A stretch of 63,364 bases of DNA, counting the filler, from Sphacelaria rigidula (Eukaryota): NCBI GenBank assembly GCA_964200075.2. It is 8 parts of 8 records of this genome, joined end to end, with 100 filler letters (N's around TTAATTAATTAA, not from the genome) between each part and the next. Parts side by side here need not be neighbours in the genome. Positions count along the whole stretch, not along the records: positions 31,734 to 39,566 come from CAXNAA020013315.1; 7 more parts are not named here. One strand, given 5' to 3'. The position numbers and the translations under genes were made by a program. Of this stretch, positions 7,835-55,532 are shown piece after piece. The notes beneath the pieces are model-generated. The model was not told where the DNA came from. It worked only from the letters and a program-made list of their open reading frames with translations, and searched no databases. How positions within the stretch are numbered: position 1 is the first letter of the stretch; every line of letters begins with the position of its first letter.

Positions 7835-7934
7835 NNNNNNNNNNNNNNNNNNNNNNNNNNNNNNNNNNNNNNNNNNNNTTAATTAATTAANNNNNNNNNN
7901 NNNNNNNNNNNNNNNNNNNNNNNNNNNNNNNNNN
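7835..7934. other. Artificial contig spacer
   Basis: N44-TTAATTAATTAA-N44; stop codons in all six frames. Confidence 0.99.
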
Positions 7935-9915: not shown

Positions 9916-10216
9916 GTATTGTAGACAACTTCTTACGGTACCGAGAACATACTCGTAGGTTCGTTCACGTTTTTTTTTTTTAACGCCGCACTATAGGACC
10001 AAACAATACAGGGAAAGTGTATGTATTTTTGCATTCGGCAGAGAAGCGGTCAGGACTCTCACAGTGACATACTACACTTCTGATAATCTCTGAGTGCAAT
10101 CAAGAAGCGCATGCTCGGTATGATTTTGTCACCCCGCTTTGTAACGAGAAACACCGTATAGAGTATACTCCGCTTGCATGATAATATGCACAGCACGCAC
10201 ATGGGCAATACTGTAG

Positions 10217-11990
10217 ACCGAACCGGAACATGATGAATTGAGAAACCGAAGAAAGATCGAACTGGAACAAAAGCATGAATAACGGCGAATTAGAATGAAG
10301 GCTGAATCGGAAGTACAGCACAAGTTGGAGCGAACCGAGACATGGACCGAACCGGAACATCACTATAATAAGTTGAAGCAAAGCGGAACATAGACTGAAC
10401 CAAAACAACAGCATGTATTGAAAGGAACTAAAACTTAGACCGAACCGGAACAACACTAATATGAGCGAACTGAAACGTAGACCGAACCGAAACTACAACA
10501 TTAATTGAGGCGAACCGAGAGATGGGCCGGACCACAAACAGGCAAAAATTGAATCCAACTGGAAGGTGAATCTAACTGGAACGTAAGTATGAACTTGAAC
10601 CCAACTGGAACATAGATTGAACCGGAAGTATGACAGAATTTATGGCGAATCGGAACATATGACGAACCGGAAGTACAACACAAGTTTAGGCGACAAAAAG
10701 CGGACCAAATCGGAGCAACAGCATGAATTGTAGTGAACCGGAACAAAGGAATAGATTTGAGCGAACCGAAACATGGGCCAACCCGAAACTAATGAACAAG
10801 TTGAACCCAATTGGAAGATATGCCGAATCGAAACACACACCGAACCGGAAGCACAACACAAGTTGAAGCGAATCGAGGCGTGGGCCGAACCGTCGGAACA
10901 ACAGCATGAATTGAAGCGAACCAAAAGATGGCCCGAACCGGAACGAGAACACTAATCGAACGAACATAGACCGAACCGGAACAACATCGTGAACTAAAAA
11001 AACGAAAACATGTATCCAGCAGCAACAACGGCATGAACTGAAGCGAACCGCAACATAGGCTGAACCAGAACGAAGGAACAAATAGAACCCTACTGCAACA
11101 TGCACCGAACCGGGCTAGAAGCACAGGTTATAGCAAATAGGAACAAAGACCGAACCGGAAGGATAGCACAAATTGAAGCGAATCGAATGGTACTGAATCG
11201 GAACAAGTGCATGAATTGGAGCGAATGGAAACATGGACCGAACCGGAACGACAGCGTGGATTGAAGCGAACGGAAACAAATCGTAAGTTGAGGCGAACGG
11301 AAACATAGACCGAACCGGAACGAAGGCATAAATTGGAGCGAACTGAAGCGTGGACCGAACCGGAACAACAGGATGAACGGAATCAAGCCGAAACATATGC
11401 TAAACTGGAACAAAAAAACGAATCGCACCAAACCGAAATATTTACCGAACCGGAATAAAGGCATAGACCATTGCGAATCGGAACAAAGGTCAATCGGAAG
11501 TACAGCACAAATTCAAGCGAACCGAAACGTAGACCAAATTGGAACAGCAGCGTAAATTGAAGGAATGAACCGGAACAAGGGCAGAACCGGAATAACAGCT
11601 TGGGTTTAAGCGAACCGAAACATAGACCGAATCGGAACAGCAGCATAAATTGAAGCGAACCCGGGTATAGACCAAGCCGCAACGAGACCATAAATGCAAC
11701 TGACCCAAAACATAGACCGAGCTAGAACGAGAGCATAGATAAAAGCAAACCGAAACATCGACCGAACCACAACGAGAAGGTGCATTGCACTTAATCCGAA
11801 CATAAACCCAACCGGAACAGAGGCGTGAATTGAAGCAAACCGACACGTGGACCGAATGTGGACAGAGTAAGGATAAGCTGATTTTCGTTTATGATTTTGT
11901 TTTTGCACTTTTTTTTGTGGTGATGCGGAGGAGAGGCGCGAACACATACCGAACCGGAATAAGGGCATGAATCGAAGCGACCTGAAACAG
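10217..11990. repeat. Degenerate ~45-bp minisatellite (roughly 35-40 units)
   Basis: Consensus GACCGAACCGGAACAACAGCATGAATTGAAGCGAACCGAAACATA. It produces recurrent 15-aa pseudo-peptides (MLLFRFGLCFGSLQF on the minus strand) in the ORF track. Confidence 0.9.
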
Positions 11991-12996
11991 ATCGAAGGCG
12001 GAGAGGTTAGGGAGAATGGTTCTTCTTATGATTTTATTTTTGCATTTTGTTCTTGTGGTTATGTGGAGGAGGGGGGGGGGGAGAGGGGGGGGGTGTACTC
12101 ATGATCATGCATGCCATAGTCATAACACGGGGAGGGGGAGGGGGAGGGGGAGGGGGGGGTCCAACAATATGCCCTGTCTCCAGGCCATTCTTATTTATTT
12201 GGAGGAGAGCTATTTTCCAACATTTGGAATCGTGGGGATTTCTTCTCATTCTTTTCAGTGATATCTCGCTCCCACACTGGCTGCTTCAATCTCCACTTCT
12301 CCGCTCCTACAGTACACCGGAGTGCCCAGCAGCCAGCAGCAGCACCTTGTCTCAAGCTGTGCGCTTCCGTGACGATGGCCATGCCTGGGTTGGCTCACTG
12401 ACTACATGTGTCGTTGCCTACCTCGTCAATTTGGACAAAACACGATCTGCGTATGCTGTCGTGGGCATCGGAGCACTCGGGACTGCTAGCCCCACTAAAT
12501 TTCCGAATCTCGATGATCACACTTGAATCAAGTAATACACACCGTGGATATTTTGGCGCTCGAACGGAGACAAACTGTACTGGCTTGCTTTGCTAATTTC
12601 CTCGTTCGTTCTGCGGGTTGCATACATGAAAGTCCTTCCGATCTTCCGCTTTGAGGGTGCAATACAACCCCGCCGCGCCAACTGATGTATATACAGCAGC
12701 AATCGGTTCAAAACGCACTTCGTGGACTCGAATCCCGACAGAAACGCCTTTTCATTTTTTGAGTTCCCGTCGTCCTGAAACATGAGGACGTACGTGAGTT
12801 GGGGAAGTAATAAATAAATAAAATTGAATGAAAATCGAACGGCTGCGAGGGTACTGATCGAAATACTCGACAAAACGTTTGTGAGGCAAATGTCGGGGGG
12901 AGGGGAGATGCATTCATCCAATGAGAGTACAGAATGGATTGATCCGAGAAAGGGTCCTGTTCAGGGTATAACGAACGGAAACGTAACGAATAGCTG

Positions 12997-15767: not shown

Positions 15768-15867
15768 NNNNNNNNNNNNNNNNNNNNNNNNNNNNNNNNN
15801 NNNNNNNNNNNTTAATTAATTAANNNNNNNNNNNNNNNNNNNNNNNNNNNNNNNNNNNNNNNNNNNN
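15768..15867. other. Artificial contig spacer
   Basis: N44-TTAATTAATTAA-N44. Confidence 0.99.
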
Positions 15868-23700: not shown

Positions 23701-23800
23701 NNNNNNNNNNNNNNNNNNNNNNNNNNNNNNNNNNNNNNNNNNNNTTAATTAATTAANNNNNNNNNNNNNNNNNNNNNNNNNNNNNNNNNNNNNNNNNNNN
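23701..23800. other. Artificial contig spacer
   Basis: N44-TTAATTAATTAA-N44. Confidence 0.99.
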
Positions 23801-31633: not shown

Positions 31634-31733
31634 NNNNNNNNNNNNNNNNNNNNNNNNNNNNNNNNNNNNNNNNNNNNTTAATTAATTAANNNNNNNNNNN
31701 NNNNNNNNNNNNNNNNNNNNNNNNNNNNNNNNN
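31634..31733. other. Artificial contig spacer
   Basis: N44-TTAATTAATTAA-N44. Confidence 0.99.
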
Positions 31734-31994
31734 AAGATTTGCTCTATTTTTCACGAGGATTCCAGCACGCTTGTCCGATCTTTCGTACTCCCAGTTTCAC
31801 TCTTTGCCGGATTCTGGATTTTTTTTGTCACCTGAAAAAACTTCGAGTTGTCAGCAAATAGTACGTATTTTTCCCGACAACTCGAAATTTTTTCAGGTTA
31901 CTGCAAAAATCCAGAATCTGGCCAAGAGTAAAACTGGGAGTACGAAAGATCGGACAAGCGTGCTGAAATCCTCGTGGAAAATAGAGCAAATCTT
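31734..31994. mobile_element. Foldback palindrome (~125-bp arms, cut by contig start)
   Basis: AAGATTTGCTCTATTTT.CACGAGGATT.CAGCACGCTTGTCCGATCTTTCGTACTCCCAGTTT is mirrored at 31925-31994. Centre near 31864. Confidence 0.9.
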
Positions 31995-32597
31995 TCCGAG
32001 GGGGCCAAATCCGCCAAGCCCCGTAATCCACCAATAATCCGAGGTGAAACGTTCAACAAGGCAATTCTCAGACAGATTTGTTTTCAGGCTATAAGAAGCG
32101 GCCTAAAGCAAGAAAAAACAAAGAACAGAGCAAAACAAATGAGATAAAAAAATAAAAAAATAAGAAGCCCAAGGGATTCAGGGCAGCAGAGTACATACAG
32201 ACACATTTTGTTTCAAATAAGTGGGACGTTATTGAGAACAAAGAAATGAGTTCCGCACGTGCAGTCGTACCGGACAAGAGACACAAACACTATTGCACCG
32301 CATGAGGAGCTGTACACCCGCAGAAATCCGCACCGAATCCCACAAGAAAATACAGGCCTAAACACATCACCACTCGATCACTGGCAACCATGTACGGGTG
32401 CATAATGAGCATAGCCCTTGCTACAGTAGCAAGTGCATCCTGCATTGAAACAAAATTACGAATCGTCTTACTACGAACGTACAAGGAAATATGGCACAAC
32501 CTTCCATCAGTCGGAGACCTGCCTTCTACCCCCCCTCAACTCCCGCCCTTACGGCGCACCTCCGCCTCCTCCTCGCCGCCACTGCAAACTAACGTCG

Positions 32598-35266
32598 TCA
32601 CTGACTGTTGATGAACGCGACGTCGATGTCTAGAATGTTACGGTGTGCTTTTTGCTTCTTGCGCATCGCCTCGATTCCGGCCTTCCCCTCCGGTACGTCG
32701 TCGCCTGCGTCTTTGAGTTGCGTCATATCATGGTACGCCCGGCAGTAGTCTCGAGTGCGTCGCGCAAAGCGTCGCACTCGGTCCAGCGTCAAAATTGTGG
32801 CGCGGCACAGAGACTTCACGATATTAGCATGTAGGTTTCTTGGCACCTCGTCGTTGATCTCCCGCCGGTAATGCTGCTTCGATATCCCCCAGGAATATTC
32901 GATCCCGACCCCTGCAACCTCCGGGTGGCACTTGGGCGATAGCACGAGAAGGTGGCCACGGCTCTCAACGGTGTGCTGCAGTGCTGTTCTCTCGTCCCGA
33001 AAGTCCGGCTACTTTCCCAGGACGGTTACGATGTTATTTTCTGGCCTCACCTTGTCTCCCGTCCCCACCTGGTCCACCCACAATCCGCGCTCCCATGACA
33101 CCTGCTTCATTCCCTTCGCTTTACCAACGTAACCCTCCTTGATATACTCCTCCGTTTCTTCAGTCGAGCTAGTTGCTCCCCCCGTTTCCTCGCCTTCTGG
33201 AACGGGAGCGCTGTCCTTCTTCTTCGGTGTTTTCTTTCGCACCATTTTCGTGTCTATCTCGGGGGCATCCACATCGTAAAAAGGTGGGGGGTCACCCGAC
33301 TTAAATGTCATGCATTGTGTGTCACCTACCTTGAGCTTCTTCGGATGAGGTGTGGCTCCTACTCTGTACTCTGTGCTCCACTTTTCACCGAGTTTATACA
33401 TAGTCGCGTGCGCGCTTCCCAGACACCCCTCCGTCATTGTGGTATCCCGTGATACTTTCTGCTTCCCCCCGTATTTGACGTTCATGCTTGATGTTTGCAG
33501 TCCATCCTCACACATTTTCGCGTGTCCCGCAGAGTGGTCCACCTCAAACACTATTTGCTTGTCGGGTTCGACTCTCTCTAGGACATCCATGATATCCACC
33601 ACCTGCTTTTCGAAGTGCTCGAACCCCCATTAGCCACCTTTGGTTTTCCCGAAAACAAGATGTCGCGTGCCTGGAGTCCTTTGCGGCGCCGGGCGGCCCC
33701 GTTCCTCGCGAAACTTGTTCACCCGCTCCAGCTCATCTTTCGTCAGAGGCAAACCGAAGCCACGCGTCTCGTCCTGGAAAGCCGAAATCATATCTCCCGC
33801 CCCCTCCGTTTTCTTTCGCAGGCCACGCACTCCCTGGATCACCCACTCATTGCCCTCACGCGCGTACACTTTGTAAATGCTTTCGTCTTGGCCAAAATAG
33901 TACACCTTACGATCGCACTTGCACACCTCCTTTGAATGATGCGCCTTGCAGGAGGTACTGACAGCTTTTGGAAGGTGGACGCTGTAGCGCCTACCATCTG
34001 GCCCGAGAGCTTTGCGGAGTGCATCGAACGTTTCGATCACTCCGCCATCGTTCAAGAGGTCAACGTGGAACTCGATGCACGCCTTACCATTAATTTCACA
34101 CTCGTATACCTCCGCATCGTCAGTCTCGTCGCCGGTCCCCTCCAGAACCTCAAAGTTCGCTAGCTCCTGTTCATGTTCAGACAGAGAAGCGTTTTCCACA
34201 TGCTCCCACAGCGGTTGTCCTAATGCGATTTCCCGCTTCTCCTTGATGTACTCGTTGCGACTTTCCACTATATCAGGCCTCTCATGGCCGTCAGTGTAAT
34301 ACGATTGACTGTGCCTCTCGTACGTACACCCCAGTTTTGTCACGCATGAGTGGATCGTGGATGCGGAGATAGGGAGTGTCAGACTATACCGCTCCAGCTG
34401 CATCATCCCTCCTTTTCCCTCGAAGAAGCTGTCATTGATGTATCGACGGATCGAGTTGATATTGAGCCGCTTCTGCGACTTGAGCCACCGTAAGAGCTTC
34501 AGATTCAGATCCTCCTCGTTGAATATCCACTCCCTCTCAAACGCCCCCCTTCCGTCGCGCTTGAAGTACCCCTTGGTTTTCTTGAGTTCATCCGCCCACT
34601 TCAGAACTGTCCGAGGCTTCAAGCCGTCGAGGTCGGAACGCATCACGACGTCGACCGCGATCTTCAACAGAGACGATTCATGGCGAAGCGCTAGCGCATC
34701 TGACATAAGACCGTACACGCGATGATCGGCGGTCCTCACGGCAGTTTTTGTTGCGGGCGCGCCTCCTTCGCAAATACGATTGGCAGCCTCCAAGTATTCC
34801 AAGACGTTTCCGTTACACTGACATTCTGCCTTCAGAATTTCGAAGGTTGTATACGCTTGGTAGCCCAGACGGTCCATCTACACGGCCGACACAGGCGCGG
34901 GCACGCTGCACCCCAGCTCTGCTGCATTTTGAACTTGTGGGTACACGTCCTCGTCGGGCAGGAGTAGCATATGTCGACGTGGGAGCAGATGTGCCCCAAG
35001 GCGCTGGATTAATGAACCGAGATATTTATTCTTCGTCTTCAGTCCCGCGATCCATCGACCAAGGTAGGAAGCACGCCTGCTGAATCTGCCAGAAATCATT
35101 TCACCCCTCCTCCGCCAACCCCGTTCCACGCATCTTCGCTCTCGGCTGGAAAGCGCCGACGACGCAGCGAAATCCGTTCGGGTAATTCCGTGGCCTTCCA
35201 GGCGTAGCCGCTTAAGTCTTCGCTCATCGATGCAGTTGAGAGAGGCGAGGCTGTTGAGCGATTTCC
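32598..35266 (-). pseudogene. Transposase exon 3: DDE catalytic core with three in-frame stops
   Basis: One frame links ORFs 34878-35129, 33630-34877, 33009-33602 and 32598-32945, with stops at 34878-80, 33630-32 (GG*WG, cf. GYW) and 33009-11. Motifs: YYTDGHERPD, GQDESIY (D1), FEVDHSAGH (D2), GKAKGMKQVSWERGLW, PDF, SPKCHPEVAGVGIEYSWG (E). Acceptor CACATTCCACAG at 35267. Confidence 0.88.
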
Positions 35267-35646
35267 CTGTGGAATGTGGCGAGCGGTTGAATTTCGCCGC
35301 GGTGGGTTACACAACAGGGTCACCGAAGTGTGTCGGCGCACAGGTAACACCGGGCCTTTGAGTGAGGTTGTGAATGGGGGACACCAGCCATAAGAGTGGG
35401 ACAGACTGTGGCTCTAAGAGTAGCAAGACAGTTGTCAACCGTATAGACAGCATGTTGCACGCCCTACAACGCAGCGTGCGCGCGTAATGAACGACGCCAT
35501 CTGCAGAACATCACGTCAGGCGAATACACTTGCCGTACCCGAACGTCATCATGAAAAGTGTGGATTATGGCACCGTGTCAAACCTCCAGGATGCAGCAAC
35601 AGCACGCGCAGTAGTCACGACATACGCACGACCTGCGATGACTCAC

Positions 35647-36000
35647 CTCGGGGAATCACAGGTTCCTTATAATGGGATCCCGTCGCTACCTGTGGCGAGC
35701 GATCATCAGTGAGGAGACCCCTCTTCTTCTCTTCCCAACTCAACCTCCACTCCTCAGCCGCTGCCTCGGCCTCGTCACGTGTACCAAACCGCTGCGATAA
35801 CTTCCGCTGAACCTTTTCCCCTCTCGCAGGCGTGTACCGGAGAGTTGAACGAAACATCCCTCCGGGCTTCTCCTCTCGCACACGAGGTGTAGAAGTCTTC
35901 TTCCACTCCCGTTCCGCCACGGGAGAACTGGGTTGCCTATATTCCTTGTTGGAGTCCAATGTGTTTGCTCGAGGGGCGTTGTTGCTGTTGATCGATTCCC
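35647..36000 (-). CDS. Predicted transposase exon 2 encoding an AP2-like DNA-binding domain
   Basis: 354-nt symmetric phase 1-1 exon. Acceptor CTAAC...CACATTCCACAG|, donor G|GTGAGT. Peptide ...FRSTLRYTPARGEKVQRKLSQRFGTRDEAEAAAEEWRLSWEE. Confidence 0.7.
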
Positions 36001-36678
36001 CTGTGGAATGTGACAGTGAATTGGATTTCGTCGTCGTGGATTTCAGTTCCGTTAGTTTAACGTGCAGGAGAGCAGCAGCCATTCCGTCCATTCCAAACCC
36101 CATCCTTCGGCGCGACAAATGAACCACGAATCCGAACCACAACATGTGCACACTATCTTTGTGATTTGTTTGAGACTACCCCGCATGTCATCGTCGGAAG
36201 GGTGATGTCTTGCGTCATATTTCATCGGCAGCAAGGAGCAGCAGCGACAGCAGCAGTTGCACCCCTACAGACGGCGCTGCGCAACAACACAAGCAGTGGC
36301 ACTCGTGAAAGCACAACCCTTACGCATTCGCGAAGTGCAAAAGGCAGACGAAGCGTGCGGCTAAACGACCAGAAAGTGCCCTACATGCATTACCACCCTC
36401 GATGTGAACACATCTGCATGGTAGTTGCTGACGGACACCGTCTCAAACGTAACTTCAAACGGAAGAGAAGCAGCATGCGCTGCGCACTGTATGCCACACA
36501 AGGAATGTTCCGTCAACAACGATCGACGTTCCCTATTGAACATAACCTCAGGCGTCAAGATTTGGTCCGACCACGACTTCTGCCACGGAGGGGTGGGCTC
36601 TACGGTCATATGCGCAGTACAGACTGCAGCAGCAACAATAGTAGAACGAGTAACAAGCCACAGCCTCGAAGGACTCAC

Positions 36679-36991
36679 CCAAGGGAACGACTGATTGCTC
36701 ATGACCTGAGCTCCTGATCGCTCCTGGCAAGTTACCACTAGTGGGTCGACCCCTCCTCCCTTCCTCCCAGTTTAACCTCCATCCCTCGGCAGCTGCTTCC
36801 GCCAGCTGTCGTGTTTCGAAACGCGAAGATTTCTTCCGCTCGGGCCTTTCACCCTTCCCTGGTGTGAACCTCAGCGACAGACGATACTTTCGAGACTTCC
36901 TCTCTACATGAACAGTGGGTACAGAAGTCTTCGACCATAGGTTTCCCCTCGCAGAAGAGCTGGGTGGCGTGTTTTCGTTGTTCATGTCCAT
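36679..36991 (-). CDS. Predicted transposase exon 1 encoding an AP2-like DNA-binding domain
   Basis: ATG at 36991 (MDMNNE...) to the phase-1 donor G|GTGAGT. Peptide ...YRLSLRFTPGKGERPERKKSSRFETRQLAEAAAEGWRLNWEE, a clear paralogue of exon 2. Confidence 0.7.
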
Positions 36992-37234
36992 CGCTACCAC
37001 CAGCACAAGTGGCCGACGTGGCCACTTGTGCCTCAATTCTCTAATTCCACCGCATTTTTGTCGGCACAACACAGCATCCAACGGTTTCAGATGCGTTTTG
37101 TTTCTTCAACTCAACTCGCAAGCGATTTAACTTCAGTGTAGGATGGTGGGAATCGAAGGGAAGGCATGGGCCCACGCTGGAGAGCACATGGGCATCTGCT
37201 CCTTGTTGAGACGATTAATTTGATATGCGGACCA

Positions 37235-37308
37235 AGGCCTAATTCGTGTCCGGTGATGGGATATTGCTCTGACAGTTCAACTCCGTTTTTAGGCTGGCCC
37301 AGCTCGTA
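37235..37308 (-). repeat. Transposon terminal inverted repeat plus TA target site
   Basis: GATATTGCT...TCCGTTTTTAGGCTGGCCCAGCTCG|TA. Homology to 47600-47668 stops right after TA. Confidence 0.8.
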
Positions 37309-39566
37309 CCGCATCTGTGTGACCTTCTTCTCGTACGATTGGTTATTTGAACGTTTTTCGCCCTATGTTCGGGTTCTTTGTCTTTTACCACGGGAAGCGT
37401 CCGCGTGATATACCCGGTACAGAGCAATGCTGTGAGGTCGAAAAAGTTTCAACTGTGAGGACAACAACCACGACAACTACAACGACAAATTGGGCACATG
37501 GACCGTCCTTTACAAAGAATCCACATCCCCATGAGTATACAAACACCCATGAAAATGCTGATCGCAACAAATATCGGGGGGTCATGATGATGCGAGAGAC
37601 CAAGTTTCCCCGGGAGCAGTGCTACGGTAGGGGTGCACTTTCTACGCAAAATCTTGTCTGGTTCAGGGACTCCCAACGATTTTAGATGCAGAAGAATATG
37701 GGTCAGGGCATCCTCGTTTGCAAATTCATTCGGAATATCCCTCGCACGTTGGAATAGTAATCCTGACGTACTCTCGCATATGTCATAAGTCGTGTTTTGG
37801 ATGAGATAAATGGCACCTGACAACTCTAACCTAAGATGAAAAAATGTGCACCATTACCGTAGCATCACTCCCGGCATTCGCAGCCGGTGCCTCGCGTACG
37901 TGCATTTATACTGCGATGCGAAGCGATCCCGAACTGGCCACGAAAATGCTGCCTGTACCTCGACTGTAACGTTTGCCATCACATGACGCCAAGGATATTA
38001 AAAAGTTCTCCGTATCCCAGCGCCGCCGGAATAAGTGGTGAAAATGCTCGTGCGCCGTCTTTGCTTCAAACTACCTGTGATAGTCGATTGCACTGCACAG
38101 CACTGTCACCGTACATAATCTGCCACTATGGGCTTCAACATCTTACGTAAAGTCTGAGCTATAGATGTCGGTCACAACTACCGTCATCGCGGAAGACACG
38201 CTCCACGGTGTTGCAGTGACTGCACCGGGAGTACGGGTGGGCATTACTGCCGCCAAATATGTTTCACTGCCCACGCTTCCTGTTTATCCCCGCGGTATTC
38301 CGCAGTGTGTCCCCCCTTGAATTTGCTCTCAACAAGTGTACTGCGTACAGTATGGAACGTGTGGTCGCGGTACAAACAACGTGCGATACTGTATGTGGTA
38401 GACCTGGCGGGCCAGGTTGTTGCCCAGGTGGTGGAAATCGCATACTAAGAGCAAATGAAAATGAGGTGAAGTCCGCATAACGCTGATAGCGTGCCTGTCA
38501 AGGAAAGGTCAATATCTTCACATCGATCCATGAAGTCGCAGAATATTCGGTTGATTGTGATGGAAACAAACTACAACAACCTCCCCTACCATTCTCACGC
38601 CGCCGTGATATGAAGCACGGTGAGTCTGGCACTGTAGGAAGCGAGGCGTTGCCCGCTGCCGGAGCACGTTCGCAGTGCTCCTCGGCTGAACACCCTCTCA
38701 TCTCTGGTTACTCTGCGCGGCCCCGTCTTGCTCGACACGACGCCTTAACCTCAACGGCATCTGCCTCTCTAACGTATGGAGAACCTTCACTGTTGAAAAT
38801 TTCCCGTCTTGGTGCCAGCCTCGACCGACAGGGGGCCGATGTGGATAACAAGGCTGACAAGATATGCCCCTGGCTTCGAACGGGTGTGTTATCATTACCC
38901 TCTACAACTGTCATGAGAAAGTGTTCTAGTTTTTGGAATAGCCTCAGCGTCGTGCAAAATTATTGTCTCAGGCCACGCTGCGCTTGAAACGCCTTGGATC
39001 GCCACTGCTGCGTCGACACCTAGCTTCGGCTTCAACCCATACATACATCAAGGTTCAGCTTTGACAGACGTGAGGTGTGCTCTGTTGGGTAGCCTATTAT
39101 CCGATATACCGCTTCCATATTATTGAAAAGGAATAACACTGGTATTGGCGGGCAAAATGGGTATCTATTTCGAACAGCTTTTCGTGTACGAATTCCATCT
39201 GCGAAGGTATATGGGGTTTGTACAGCCTCTGCTGTTCGAAATAGAGCCTTCATGTCCGATTCCAAATTTGGGTTTGGGCATGCTGTACAGGATTTATTTC
39301 GAACAGCAGAGAACAACATTTTCCTGAGTTAGAGAGTAGAGCGCTGATCGAGAGTGTCATACGGCTACACGTCGATATGCTACTCAGGGACATATGACGC
39401 CAGCCTGAAGGACTGGTGGATCACTGCTGTTGAGGGACTCCCCAGTCTCACTGGCCTCAGTTTCAGTTGTCAGCCTTTACAATATTCGAGTCATTCTACG
39501 ATAGCGGGGGGGGGGGGGGGGAGGGGTACTCATTTGTGTCTTACCTTAAGCCTTTAACCAGTGTTC

Positions 39567-39666
39567 NNNNNNNNNNNNNNNNNNNNNNNNNNNNNNNNNN
39601 NNNNNNNNNNTTAATTAATTAANNNNNNNNNNNNNNNNNNNNNNNNNNNNNNNNNNNNNNNNNNNN
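39567..39666. other. Artificial contig spacer
   Basis: N44-TTAATTAATTAA-N44. Confidence 0.99.
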
Positions 39667-40169: not shown

Positions 40170-40254
40170 TACTGTCTCTGCGACGGTAATCGATCTGTTT
40201 CGAGAACAGTACCAAACGCCACGAGCCACAAATATTTCCAACAGGTTATGAGCC
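40170..40254 (+). mobile_element. Copia LTR 3' end (U5) and primer-binding site
   Basis: ...ACCAAACGCCACGAGCCACAAATATTTCCAACA (ends 40243, matches the LTR end at 47089) is immediately followed by GGTTATGAGCC, the copia-type half-tRNA-iMet PBS. Confidence 0.85.
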
Positions 40255-40440
40255 TCGATTCGCGACCACGTAGTCCTTCAGGTCATCGGCCTTCAATTCG
40301 AGACTACGACGGTCAACACGAGCGAGGGGACGTCACTTCAAGGTCGTCTCAGCAGCATCAATCAGAAGACCAAGAAACCAGATCCTTTCACAGGATCTGC
40401 AGGTGTTAATAGAAAGTATTACGAATAAAACTTGAGGCAG

Positions 40441-41613
40441 ATGAGTACATCGGGAGAGCCATCTGTAACTCAACTCATCGGGAGTATCAACAAGTTCCAC
40501 AATACGAAATTCGTCGATTGGACGCGCTCTACGCGCGCGATATTTTTCTTGACTCATACGGGGATATCTGATATCCTCAACGGAGTTGAACGCCACCCGG
40601 AAACTTATGACGAAGATTTTTCTGAGGTAGATCACCCACAACCAACTGCCAGATCGACATCAAGAACAAGCCCTATTGCGACCCGTTCCAGAAACCATCA
40701 GCAGCCGCCCGCTCGTTCGCCGTTACTATCGGTGGAGTCAAGCGCGGGGAGCGAGACGACAGCAGCGGTGGGTGATGCTGAAACTGCTGGTGATCAAGCC
40801 CAACCTCCTGTTCAAGGATTGTCTGCTCATCTCAGCGTGGAGTCAAATGTGAGACGAATTTTGAACACACGTGAGGTACAGAACTGGGACCGGTATAACG
40901 AACAGTTGTTCAACGTTTTGTACTTATCGAAAACTGGTTCAGCGGCAAGTTACCTCTTGCGTTTTCAGCCGAAGGGTTCAGAGAAACCAAACGGCAAAAG
41001 TGCGTGGGAAGGATTGGTAGCCAAGTATCAAAATTCATCTAAGCAAAGACGCCGCTTATTGATGCGATAGCTGGACACCATGACCATGTCACCAGGACAA
41101 GACCCGGATGTTTTTTTGGCAAAACTATTCCAGCTCCGAGACGAGCTCGTGCATATTGGCGAGCCCATCTCCTGCGATAGACTCACTGATATCATAGTCG
41201 AGGGTCTAACCAGCGAGTATGACCAAGTGAAATATAACGCAGCACGAGATCGAGACTTAAGCATCGGGGATATTGAAACTACCCTACGTAACATGTATGC
41301 CAATAGACTGGCGAGGAAAGTAACTGCGAGCAGATCACATGGCCGAGATTCATCAATGTTGGCAGCAGCAACGCCCAACTCCTCCAATCAGCCCGCGAAA
41401 TTTCGCGGAAAATGCTACTACTACGGAAAAGTAGGCCATCTCATGAGCGACTGTCGTTCGAGACGACAGTCCAATAATGGAAGCATGCCTGCAAAATGGT
41501 GCGCTCCTCATCGCACTGATCGACATGGCGATTCAGAATGTTATAGCGAACGCAACAAGAACAACCGCAACGACAACAACAACAACAGCAACAACCGCAA
41601 CAACGACAACAGC

Positions 41614-41705
<92 letters not shown>

Positions 41706-42591
41706 CTTCAATGGACATCAACGTCAAGCCAACATTGCCATCGCCAATCCAGCTTCCACGACCGTGCCATCGAACAACCACCAACAACAAATTTCAATAT
41801 CTTCAGCTGCACCTGCGACCGATATCTGCCGACCATCAAACGGTACTGGGTTTTCCTTTCTTTCAGGTTCGCATGTCACTGCCAATCATTGTACACCCGG
41901 CGAAAATTTCTTCAAGATGGCAGTTTACAGTGGCTCCAGCGGGCATATTTCGGATAATCACCTATTGCCGAATATCGAACGTGAGATGGTTGATTTCGTG
42001 AAGCTCGATCCACCCATGAGCATTCTTACTGTTGGACGTCATCTCCTGCAGGGTACGGGAAGAGGCATTATCAACACCATCGTTACTGATTCTGAAGGAA
42101 TCCAGCACTCTATTCAGCTTCCTGCCGTGACTATTCCAGGTCTGGGGAGACATCTGTTCTCTCGTGTAGAGGTAGTAACAAAATGAGCGTCAACCGTCTT
42201 TTCGGGTGATTCCTACGTAGACCTCGGAGATTCTAAAATTCCGATTAGCAACTGCGGTGGAGCGTTACACTACATTAGCATGCAGGTTGCTCAAGGTTCG
42301 AAAACCTTGAACAAAAGGATCGAGTCAGCACTCACGACTCAGGTATTTTCCGGAGAACGTATTGGGATGGGCACAGCATTATCAGCCGCAGTGTTTCCAC
42401 CGAACAAGACAGGGCCCGTCAAGATTGTAGAACCGCCTCCGACAGTAGCCGGCAGAGAAGTCAAAACTGTGTGCTATTCAGCCGGGAAAATGAGCAAGAG
42501 TCGTAACTACAGTAGATCTAGATCTTCATTGGCCAAGCCTACAACTGCATGCATCAGTACGGATAATACACGGAATTTGAAATCCCATTAA
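40441..42591 (+). pseudogene. Copia gag-protease polyprotein (copy A), disrupted
   Basis: Single frame with stops at 41068-70 and 42184-86. Gag core (AWEGLVAKYQ...GQDPDVFLAKLFQLRDEL...IIVEGLTSEYDQVK), degenerate Zn knuckle CYYYGKVGHLMSDC, poly-Asn, protease site mutated to VYSGSSGH, IPGLGRHLFS. Confidence 0.88.
41554..41706 (+). repeat. (AAC)n microsatellite encoding poly-Asn within gag
   Basis: Long AAC run in frame with gag. Confidence 0.95.
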
Positions 42592-44150: not shown

Positions 44151-44934
44151 TTCACAGGGTATGTGTTATCGTCCCATCTATTCTGGACGTCAATCTACAG
44201 CTTTCGGTACACATCTATGCGCACCAGCCGGGGTCAACCAAAGGGTTAGGGCATAGTCACACAGGAGAACAGAATGTAGGGTATTTGATGCCACATGTTA
44301 CTGTACGGTTCACAGAACGTTCGGGATGGTTTTGTTGCACATTTTTATCTTTCGTTCTTTCTAAAAAGTTCAAGGAATTTGTTTCTACAGGGCTCATGAA
44401 ATTTGATGCCTACGCGAGAAGCGCACACACATACGTGTGCATGCGGGTGGACTTTTTCAGGTCTAATTTGTATGGACTGACATTTGTCGAAAACATGACA
44501 GTACAGAATAAAATGAGGAATGGTACAACAGTTTTTGTACGTTGTATATTTCCGTCTGATTGCATTGCTCACTACCATTCTTAGTGTGTTGAGTACGCTA
44601 CTACCTTTGGTAGCAACATGTCTCATTCACGGGGAAGTGTTGGAAACATGTAGACGATGCAGTCTATATTCATTATGTTTGAATGACGTTCTTGCAACAA
44701 AATATAGCGGTACAATCTGTTGCGTTTCAACGAAACAATGAACCACGTAAGACCGTTTCATAAGTATTCTTTCATTGAGAGTACCTATTTTGTTTTGATT
44801 TATAGTCTACCTGTGTGAATGACGTTTCAGGTAGGATATTGATACAGTAGGCTGTTGGAAGTTTAGGAAATAATAGTTCCGAATATACATAGTCGGGATT
44901 GATAGCAGCAGAAAAGTAGTCATGTCCGTTTTCA

Positions 44935-45507
44935 GTAATAATCGACTCAGGGGCAGCGACCCACTGTGTGGATAGTAGTTTACTACCTGGGATAGAGCGG
45001 GGAATGTCAGATTATGTCGAGTTCAATCCCCCAATGAGCGTTAAAACGGCGGTAGGACACCTGCTACATGGAACAGGTAGAGGCGTTATACACACGATAG
45101 TGGTAGATACCCATGGCTATGAGCGGTCTGTGCGTTTACCAGCCATCGTAGTGCCCAAACTAGGGCAACATTTATTTTCGCCTTGCGAAGCACTCAAGAA
45201 GGGCGTGGATACTATTTTTTCAGCAGATCCGCACGTTGATTTGGGAGGTTTTCAAGTTCCAATGAATGTTGATAACAACGGGATATTAAGGAGTATGAAC
45301 ATGAAAACCATCCATGAGTGTGACTCAAGTAGCTCAGCGCTAACAGATACAACAGTAGTAGTAGTATCAGGGGAATCAATGGGCGTAGGCACAGCTTTGC
45401 TAGTCAGTAAGAGAGCAAAATTAAACCAAGATTCGCGTTGGAAGCAGAAAAAGAGCAGTAAAAGTAAGATATCATCGATTACGTCTGACGCAGTAGATCA
45501 GAATTAG
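44935..45507 (+). pseudogene. Copia aspartic protease region (copy B)
   Basis: VIIDSGAATHCVDSSLLPGIERGMSDYVEFNPPMSVKTAVGHLLHGTGRG...VPKLGQHLFS, colinear with copy A at 41920-42380. Confidence 0.85.
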
Positions 45508-46157
45508 AGGAGATACCACTCTACAAGTAAGAATAGCAATTTTCACCAGCTCAGTAAAAGGCAGCAACAACAGTAGTCATCTTCACGACGTAAAGCAGCG
45601 TATATCAAGGAGATATTGGGGATCAAGGATGTAGTAGATTCACTATTGTTAGGCAAACAGATTCAAAGTAACCAGAAGAAGGCATGTCTAGCGAGTAACA
45701 AGAGGAGATCAATTCAGTCACCTGTATTACACCTGAACAGTAGATCGGTAAAATCGCCTGTGTACATCAACAGCAAGGAGGATAGGCATGTACGTGAAAT
45801 AGAAGAGGGACGATTGCAAGATATTTTTATATCCGAACCACCCCGAGTATTGCAACCAGCAGGATTTTCAATATCCAGCAACAAGGAATTACGGACCAAG
45901 GACAGATCCGAGAAGCATTCGATCGTCATAGACAACAGCGAAGACGTCGACACCGAGAAGCAGCAGACAATCATACCATGGGCTAATGTTGTAGGTATAA
46001 CGTAGAGTAGTAAAGGGTTGAGAATAAGCACAATAAACGACGGCATGGTGTAACAACGACCGAGTGAGGACCGAGAACAGAGGAGAACAACTTCGACGAC
46101 ATCAACGAAGTAGATACGAGTTTTCGAAAAACAATTTCATGGAGGAAGACATGAATG

Positions 46158-47499: not shown

Positions 47500-47599
47500 N
47501 NNNNNNNNNNNNNNNNNNNNNNNNNNNNNNNNNNNNNNNNNNNTTAATTAATTAANNNNNNNNNNNNNNNNNNNNNNNNNNNNNNNNNNNNNNNNNNNN
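47500..47599. other. Artificial contig spacer
   Basis: N44-TTAATTAATTAA-N44. Confidence 0.99.
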
Positions 47600-55432: not shown

Positions 55433-55532
55433 NNNNNNNNNNNNNNNNNNNNNNNNNNNNNNNNNNNNNNNNNNNNTTAATTAATTAANNNNNNNNNNNN
55501 NNNNNNNNNNNNNNNNNNNNNNNNNNNNNNNN
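55433..55532. other. Artificial contig spacer
   Basis: N44-TTAATTAATTAA-N44. Confidence 0.99.

Follow-up and report, generated by a model that had tools for sequence, protein, structure and literature searches.

Introduction

In ITm transposases, the group of Tc1/mariner enzymes that includes Mos1, SETMAR and Sleeping Beauty, the second catalytic aspartate and the third catalytic residue (glutamate or aspartate) lie about 34-41 residues apart. A mariner-type element with an added part is known from the brown alga Ectocarpus. As described in the Ectocarpus transposon survey (PMC12477816), TcMar-2_Ec32 is a 4.4-kb mariner-type element with 25-bp terminal inverted repeats (TIRs) and a TA duplication, whose spliced transposase has gained an N-terminal EsV-1-7 domain. 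The same survey lists mariner families with spliced genes together with 51 unclassified DNA families, and its library includes the 4.6-kb Sola2-1_Ec32 (PMC12477816). AP2-type domains, for their part, occur in plant and apicomplexan regulators, in tyrosine integrases of phages and integrative and conjugative elements (ICEs) and in homing endonucleases, and mobile elements of this sort are usually credited with having brought them into eukaryotes (PMC4117751, PMC3537659). Here we describe a minus-strand transposase gene (32598-36991) in a 63,364-nucleotide (nt) stretch of DNA from Sphacelaria rigidula, hereafter the window. The locus is probably the decayed remnant of a cut-and-paste DNA transposon that is present in many copies and belongs to a family common in brown algae, encoding a mariner-like DDE enzyme with modules of the integrase Arm type on its 5′ exons.

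The locus resembles TcMar-2_Ec32 in that both are ITm-type elements of brown algae whose spliced genes have gained an additional N-terminal domain, but the domain added there differs from the Arm/AP2-type module found here. The present family may already be included, without a name, in the Ectocarpus library (PMC12477816). In contrast to typical Tc1/mariner transposases, the protein predicted here is about three times longer and has, encoded by separate exons, one or two additional modules of the Arm/AP2 type at its N-terminus. Its size prompted us to consider a Sola2 identity, since Sola2 elements likewise have long transposases (about 900 amino acids) in stramenopiles. This candidate was rejected: in the part of the source covered, the published Sola2 alignment shares no motif with the present family, its motifs DFAENY and SDG..QYKN being absent here (PMC3627910). 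Conversely, four motifs of the present family were found in none of the 12 covered files among the 14 supplementary files of that paper (PMC3627910). Our literature search turned up no Tc1/mariner-like transposase described as carrying an AP2/Arm-type domain.

Results

The window consists of eight pieces of eukaryotic DNA, 7833 nt each, and the transposase gene lies in the piece at 31734-39566. Exon 1 (313 nt, 36679..36991, minus strand as for the whole gene) starts with the ATG at 36991-36989, opens ATGGACATG (MDMNNEN) and closes with G before GTGAGTCC, a phase-1 donor of the form G/GTGAGT (slashes mark splice junctions). The core of module 1 lies within it at about 36740-36943 (module hidden Markov model [HMM] match, 2.5e-27). 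Predicted intron 1 (678 nt, GT..AG, 36001..36678), the last 45 nt of which are homologous to the end of intron 2, is followed by exon 2 (354 nt, phase 1-1, 35647..36000), which has GTCACATTCCACAG directly before it, closes with G before GTGAGTCA and contains the core of module 2 at about 35696-35920 (HMM match, 9.5e-27). Intron 2 (380 nt, GT..AG, 35267..35646) then leads to exon 3 (2669 nt, 32598..35266), which has GCCACATTCCACAG directly before it and ends with the TGA at 32600-32598; the product of this long exon comprises a basic linker, a putative helix-turn-helix region, a DDE core interrupted by a large insertion, and a helical part at the C-terminus. Each of the four junctions is in phase 1, falling behind the first base of a glycine codon (GGG/GGT), and the spliced join of 3336 nt forms 1111 codons plus TGA in one frame, with the junction peptides QSVVPLG/ESINSNN (exon 1/2) and EPVIPRG/KSLNSLA (exon 2/3). 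A preliminary description of this DNA had listed the same donors, acceptors (CACATTCCACAG), junction phase, 354-nt exon 2 and 3336-nt frame, and all of them were recovered on re-reading and recomputation. The acceptor 12-mer CACATTCCACAG occurs twice in the 63-kb window, counting both strands, each time at this gene, and GGTGAGT occurs eight times. The pairing of splice sites and modules is not a matter of chance because CACATTCCACAG is restricted to these two acceptors and the module open reading frames (ORFs) are 45% identical in amino acids over 112 residues (E = 2e-23).

Splicing was followed in contigs of sequencing runs aligned to 32300-37400 at ≥90% likeness; no run was recorded as RNA. 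Four runs (X1-X4), which contain 0.08-0.09 of the sampled words and of which X1 and X2 come from one study, were only guessed to be RNA, whereas the contigs of two further runs (X5 and X6) cover the introns without a joint and behave like DNA. The contigs of X1 and X2, by contrast, behave like RNA: depth was 20-50 on exon 3, 9-20 on exon 2 and 0-8 on intron 2. One contig of each (860 nt in X1 and 869 nt in X2, with 255 nt on the shorter side of the joint) skips 380 nt between 35265 and 35646, reading CT..AC on the plus strand, and so joins exon 2 to exon 3. Because these contigs skip precisely 35267-35646 while the DNA-like X5 and X6 contigs do not, we take intron 2 to be real and spliced at exactly the predicted sites.

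Exon 2 was found to be a duplicate of exon 1, as had been proposed earlier. When the two exon-plus-intron units were aligned, the exons were 60.1% identical in nucleotides over 313 gap-free columns, and the introns were 51.6% identical with 27 gap columns, rising to 70.5% in the last 45 intron bases. Both acceptors are spanned by a 62-nt direct repeat (76%). Exon 2 opens with codons copied from the beginning of exon 3 (GESINS, against GKSLNS there) and then continues as a copy of exon 1 through the module to the donor; in the alignment, a TTG within exon 2 stands opposite the exon 1 ATG. This chimeric arrangement is accounted for by a single tandem duplication extending from just upstream of the start codon, across the intron, to approximately 16-40 nt into the next exon. 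The event yielded a new internal exon with an inherited acceptor, an inherited donor and phase 1-1, which hence stays in frame; that one tandem duplication spanned the intron also accounts for the symmetric phase of exon 2 and for its having a splice site at either end. The ratio of nonsynonymous to synonymous substitution rates (dN/dS) between exons 1 and 2 was 0.44-0.56, dS being close to saturation.

In a tree of 72 modules, exon 2 groups with that of the relative P0054 (support, 96/82), which is only 60% identical and has the same chimeric exon-2 start (STGESLNKNNAPQAK), and exon 1 groups with P0056 (92/96) and P0059 (98/78), with which it has the start MD(M/V)NNEN in common. Because the modules are 45% identical and the diverged relative P0054 carries the same junction, the duplication is old, predating the split of these copies (60-64% identical). 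This age would also speak for a maintained two-module form. Within the wider module family, P0062 and P0093 show a partial module duplication within a single ORF, so module duplication is recurrent.

The catalytic core was located in exon 3 with the help of an alignment of 14 homologs, down to 23% identity, in which P0001 serves as the reference numbering for the long-exon product. The first catalytic aspartate lies in GQDES (33885..33887, minus strand; D461 of P0001, residue 683 of the spliced model), where the D-E pair is invariant in 14/14 sequences. The second lies in VDHSAGH (33537..33539, minus; D577 of P0001) and is likewise invariant in 14/14, and the glutamate, in GIEYSW (32898..32900, minus; E790 of P0001), is conserved in ≥90% of the 14 rows. 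As in Tc1/mariner enzymes, the first aspartate stands in DE(S/T), the second in D.S.GH and the glutamate in PE....IE..W...K. We take the motif HPE.AG.GIEYSW...K to parallel the PxxxPxLNPIExxW motif of ITm transposases. Unlike in those enzymes, the second aspartate and the glutamate are 213 residues apart, with a conserved insertion domain between them (32901..33536, minus; P0001 578-789) that contains GYVGKAKG..QVLWERGLW and is strand-rich in the structural model. N-terminal of the core, as in Tc1/mariner transposases, is a putative bipartite helix-turn-helix DNA-binding region (34278..34670, minus; P0001 ~200-330), recognized by eye from its conserved pattern and giving no Pfam match.

An AlphaFold2 (AF2) model of residues 290-889, built with 40 sequences, reached a mean predicted local distance difference test score (pLDDT) of 83.2 and a predicted template modeling score (pTM) of 0.79. 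When this model was compared with the Protein Data Bank (PDB) in Foldseek, the top seven rows were all Mos1 mariner transposase. In VIA-align, the 11 best entries were all ITm transposases (Mos1, SETMAR/Metnase and Sleeping Beauty) with Z scores of 12.9-14.1 and 189-212 residues aligned, so that the predicted core superposes on 189-212 of the approximately 200 catalytic-domain residues; integrase of avian sarcoma virus (7.9), Tn5 (7.6), piggyBat (5.6) and Hermes (5.3) scored far lower. Since Z was 12.9-14.1 against 7.9 for the next fold, the core is specifically Tc1/mariner-like in its predicted fold, the short spacer of mariners being replaced by a large conserved insertion, and the ITm-type DDE core named in the preliminary description is borne out by the same comparison. 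Among the features of ITm membership, the catalytic fold and the D, D, E triad were found, whereas the short spacing and a match to a curated sequence model were not: Pfam returned no family at E ≤1 for any gene piece, ITm models included, nor at E ≤0.01 for the 970-residue read-through. As a separate observation on the insertion, a SAP domain (PF02037, Pfam) lies inside it in the distant relatives P0036, P0037 and P0039, and P0042, P0043 and P0047 have a longer core insert that looks SAP-like by eye, an unusual site for a DNA-binding motif in a mariner-like core.

To characterize the N-terminal modules, a profile made from eight of them was used in a search that gave a module family of 123 cluster representatives with E ≤1e-3 among 1.84 billion. 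A search for longer proteins with the module profile yielded at least P0038. In 35 of the 111 assessable module ORFs, the signature [LV]P.G[KEQ] is read through, corresponding to read-through of a G/GT(A or G)AG donor. The AF2 model of the module (72 sequences) had a pLDDT of 81.4, with the core at about 94, and comprises strands at residues 22-26, 31-38 and 47-50 followed by a helix at 57-72. The module is thus predicted to have, over approximately 60 residues, the strand-strand-strand-helix topology of an AP2/ERF-type three-stranded antiparallel sheet with a C-terminal helix. In a second look at the module structure with VIA-align, the plant AP2 domain of AtERF1 (1gcc_A) ranked first (Z = 4.6, 53 residues aligned, 19% identity), followed among AP2 entries by 7wq5_B (4.2), 6sy0 (4.0-4.1) and 7et4_A (3.7); four AP2 entries and lambda Int 13-73 fell within the top 50 of 48,161 chains.

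Profile comparison placed the module closer to integrases. Below threshold, PF14657 (Arm-DNA-bind_4; gathering score, 22.3 bits) matched 8/72 members (best E = 0.0036), PF00847 (AP2) 2/72 (best E = 0.0038) and PF13356 1/72, and sub-threshold matches in PHROGs were to integrase (7/72) and HNH endonuclease (4/72). In the Atlas, the nearest named clusters were all Arm/integrase DNA-binding families at 0.83, with none at ≥0.9. The integrases of phi11-type staphylococcal phages, in which Pfam puts PF14657 at residues 11-53 of phi11 Int, were used as the comparator in hhalign: the module family matched them at 86.1% (E = 5e-6; 52 columns, Int 3-54) and at 94.5% when both sides were trimmed. In the controls, four other integrase windows gave 0.1-1.6%, the reversed domain 2.2% and 20 column shuffles ≤0.5%, and the lambda Int arm domain as a single sequence gave no hhalign match (0.5%). 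Because a whole-domain profile match of 86-94% stands against controls of ≤2.2%, we conclude that the module is a remote member of the AP2/integrase-Arm group, nearer the integrase side and outside PF00847 by Pfam's rule. The earlier expectation of an AP2-like fold accordingly agrees with the AF2 prediction (strand-strand-strand-helix), and the by-eye AP2 call held for the AP2/integrase-Arm type but not for AP2 in the narrow sense, as the Pfam AP2 threshold was not reached and the module is nearer the Arm family than plant AP2.

The module shares with the PF14657 Arm domain of phi11 Int and of the lambda and Tn916 types its predicted three strands plus helix, its length of approximately 50 residues and its position at the extreme N-terminus of a recombinase; it differs in residing on a eukaryotic DDE transposase instead of a phage or ICE tyrosine recombinase, and in that single module sequences remain below the Pfam score and binding to arm sites would be by analogy. 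With AP2/ERF and ApiAP2 domains it shares the predicted topology, and the tandem modules recall double-AP2 proteins (PfSIP2, 6sy0; WRINKLED1, 7wq5). Unlike those domains, it sits in a mobile element and not in a host regulator, matches PF00847 in only 2/72 members, and scores in structure comparison at the level of unrelated small folds.

A homolog search with the read-through sequence (X at stops; E ≤1e-3) retrieved 48 relatives of the transposase. Named sources include Ectocarpus, Sphacelaria, Laminaria, Pylaiella and Hapterophycus; those from brown algae are 50-66% identical, and the most distant relatives extend to a Puccinia protein. One N-terminal module is present in 8/48 full-length relatives, some only ~30% identical, and in the annotated Ectocarpus model P0005 it is joined to AAG/KSLNSL, the same junction as exon 2/3 here. 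The first module is thus ancestral to the family and not a recent fusion; the preliminary description had an AP2 fusion arising in this lineage by exon shuffling, which does not fit the presence of the module in these relatives. Metagenome contigs from JGI/ENA contained at least 182 stretches encoding relatives (25-50% identity), 80 loci of which were kept for module counts, and no relative was found in viral contigs. The module thus characterizes only part of the family, mainly its brown-algal branch together with a few distant lineages (P0022, P0027, P0038 and P0041). The family is also multi-copy, given that approximately 900-1000 contigs each of X5 (983) and X6 (885) align to 5.1 kb at ≥90% identity. 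In two metagenome loci, L065 (598-1074) and L066 (259-609), the module lies near the C-terminal transposase part, as in internally deleted non-autonomous derivatives, and in L065 it runs into the next region without an intron.

Several other features were noted in the window, where adjacent pieces may stem from separate places in the genome and the end of a piece can truncate an element. The piece with the transposase gene starts with a near-perfect palindrome (31734-31994; two 125-nt arms, 90% complementary, 11 nt between). Directly upstream of the gene is a short repeat of very high copy number (37259-37400), where summed X5 contig depth reaches ~110,000 compared with 300-1700 across the transposon and where many contig ends lie loose at 37277, 37308-37320 and 37361. 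A small unit resembling a miniature inverted-repeat transposable element (MITE) follows at 37610-37874, with 32-nt inverted arms (81%) and 201 nt between them; one arm has TACGGTA and the other TACCGTA, which recalls the CCGTA/TACGG termini of Ectocarpus mariner MITEs. In the next piece, the gag remnant of a Copia-type long terminal repeat (LTR) retrotransposon lies at 40252-42183 on the plus strand (PF14223, E = 6.7e-11); its frame is interrupted by TAA/TAG stops and includes a long run of Asn, and 44779-46155 (plus) holds protease-like text similar to that of the region of this remnant. The strand-biased stretch at 10062-11512 (minus; AT skew of 0.44 in 10001-12000) has TGA-only frames made of a degenerate repeat of approximately 12 residues (VPVRSMF), which suggests a tandem repeat array. 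The pieces are joined by identical 100-nt linkers (44 N, TTAATTAATTAA, 44 N) at 7835-7934, 15768-15867, 23701-23800, 31634-31733, 39567-39666, 47500-47599 and 55433-55532.

Discussion

Our analysis makes it likely that this locus is a dead member of a multi-copy, brown-algal cut-and-paste family in which a mariner-like DDE enzyme is combined with Arm-type modules on 5′ exons. In intact members, both modules would be spliced into one protein of approximately 1100 amino acids, a form that we consider somewhat more probable than its absence. By analogy with AP2 and Arm domains, the modules may bind DNA through their sheet, at sites probably located inside the element ends and separate from those of the helix-turn-helix region. 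They might help to build the transposition complex in a manner similar to the arm-site binding of lambda-type integrases, and a second module would extend or double the recognized site.

A number of observations weigh against this picture. The spliced X1 and X2 contigs lose their match at 36002 and continue with 28 nt of foreign sequence, which was found nowhere in the whole window with up to 3 mismatches allowed; depth in X1 and X2 was about 0 from 36062 to 36916 and 0 on exon 1 plus intron 1 at ≥90% likeness, and the RNA nature of these two runs is itself a guess. Two tandem modules were found in 0/48 homologs and 0/80 metagenome loci, and even a single module was detectable in only 3/80 of the distant metagenome loci. 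Inverted-repeat scans of 31734-39566, a piece that may not span both ends of the element, revealed no TIRs or target duplication, so that the TA-flanked TIRs of Tc1/mariner elements were not found in this piece; a test for the CAGTG/CACTG and CCGTA/TACGG termini reported for Ectocarpus mariners also gave no TIR. For the modules themselves, no sequence reached the Pfam gathering score, the two modules of the window had no PF14657 match, profile searches of PDB sequences with alignments of the family gave no relevant match, and all structure matches had Z ≤4.6, level with double-stranded RNA (dsRNA)-binding domains (4.3).

The points on exon 1 bring up the possibility that the functional gene has one module and that exon 1 and intron 1 together are a 5′ fragment left by a copy, neighboring or rearranged, without being joined to exon 2 by splicing. 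Transcripts would then enter exon 2 from an exon of their own at the 5′ end or from a host exon spliced to the acceptor of the element. The contigs in which exon 2 is preceded by 28 nt unlike exon 1 fit this possibility, as do the zero depth on exon 1, the single-module state of all 8 module-bearing full-length relatives and the lack of two-module loci among the 80 from metagenomes. Exon 2, however, begins at an acceptor and offers no start codon ahead of its module; it must therefore be preceded by a coding exon in phase 1, and exon 1 supplies exactly such phase-1 coding sequence with the MDMNNEN start common to P0056 and P0059. Both exons, 60% identical, have also kept an open frame without gaps across 313 nt while the introns decayed, and P0054, only 60% identical, has the same chimeric exon-2 start. 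Moreover, the spliced contigs are only ~93% identical to the window and therefore derive from another copy, diverged by ~7%, and not from this locus. They show that the acceptor of exon 2 works and that this exon is internal, and in the copy that gave rise to the contigs it is joined to something other than exon 1; the transcript-like data thus argue that an expressed, ~93%-identical relative uses another upstream exon. On balance, we regard a one-module gene as possible but unlikely, and the exon 1 to exon 2 junction, hence the two-module mRNA, as a prediction. Of the splicing put forward in the preliminary description, the removal of intron 2 stands as predicted (X1 and X2), whereas the exon 1/2 joint and the 1111-residue protein found no such agreement, with zero cover on exon 1 and 28 nt of other sequence in its place.

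It could also be argued that the modules have another small sheet-plus-helix fold, either dsRNA-binding-like or for protein interaction, and that their likeness to Arm domains is convergent. In Foldseek, the module gave no match at E ≤1e-3, and its best rows were dsRNA-binding domains; in VIA-align, these domains (Z = 4.3) are level with the AP2 entries (4.2-4.6), and no Pfam threshold was reached. We nevertheless consider this improbable: the module model lacks the N-terminal helix of dsRNA-binding domains, its residues 1-20 being coil; the whole Arm domain was matched at 86-94% with controls at ≤2.2%; and the sub-threshold matches in two libraries and in the Atlas were all to integrase, AP2 or HNH families.

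The transposase gene of this copy has three internal stops and zero frameshifts in its spliced frame: a TAG at codon 352 (34878..34880, minus), where homologs have Gln; a TAA at codon 768 (33630..33632, minus), where they have Phe/Tyr/Trp; and a TAG at codon 975 (33009..33011, minus), where they have Leu/Cys. Because homologs have these residues there, the stops are three ordinary single-base nonsense mutations, and this copy is a pseudogene, a dead transposon. A variant code with TAG/TAA as sense and TGA as the sole stop, under which the gene would be intact, was rejected as extremely improbable, for although TAR accounts for each of the three internal stops, the gene terminates in TGA and a TGA-only reading opens 970 codons here and 644 in the nearby Copia gag, the three different homolog residues misfit one reassigned meaning, every stop is one base change away from a homolog-type codon, the other long TGA-only frame is a decayed transposon as well, and TA-containing trinucleotides are equally rare on both strands.

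Beyond this locus, an AP2/Arm-type domain on a eukaryotic mariner-type DDE transposase represents a different class of vehicle for such domains, abundant in brown algae and present in aquatic metagenomes. The gene also offers a clean example of how a DNA-binding domain is doubled when one tandem duplication across an intron creates a new exon that is automatically in frame. With regard to annotation, the family is a large one for which Pfam has a model of neither the transposase nor the N-terminal module, and its brown-algal genes are now labeled "unnamed protein product". A more speculative and doubtful extension is that the family forms an undescribed deep branch of Tc1/mariner with an arm-binding strategy borrowed from tyrosine integrases, in which the module, in some members doubled through exon duplication, would read sites inside the element ends and the helix-turn-helix region the tips. 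Because a symmetric phase-1 exon of its own encodes the module, and because the stramenopile element is mobile and multi-copy, such a family might readily carry AP2-type exons into host genes across the stramenopile-alveolate lineage. If so, it would be a candidate source of lineage-specific AP2 regulators.

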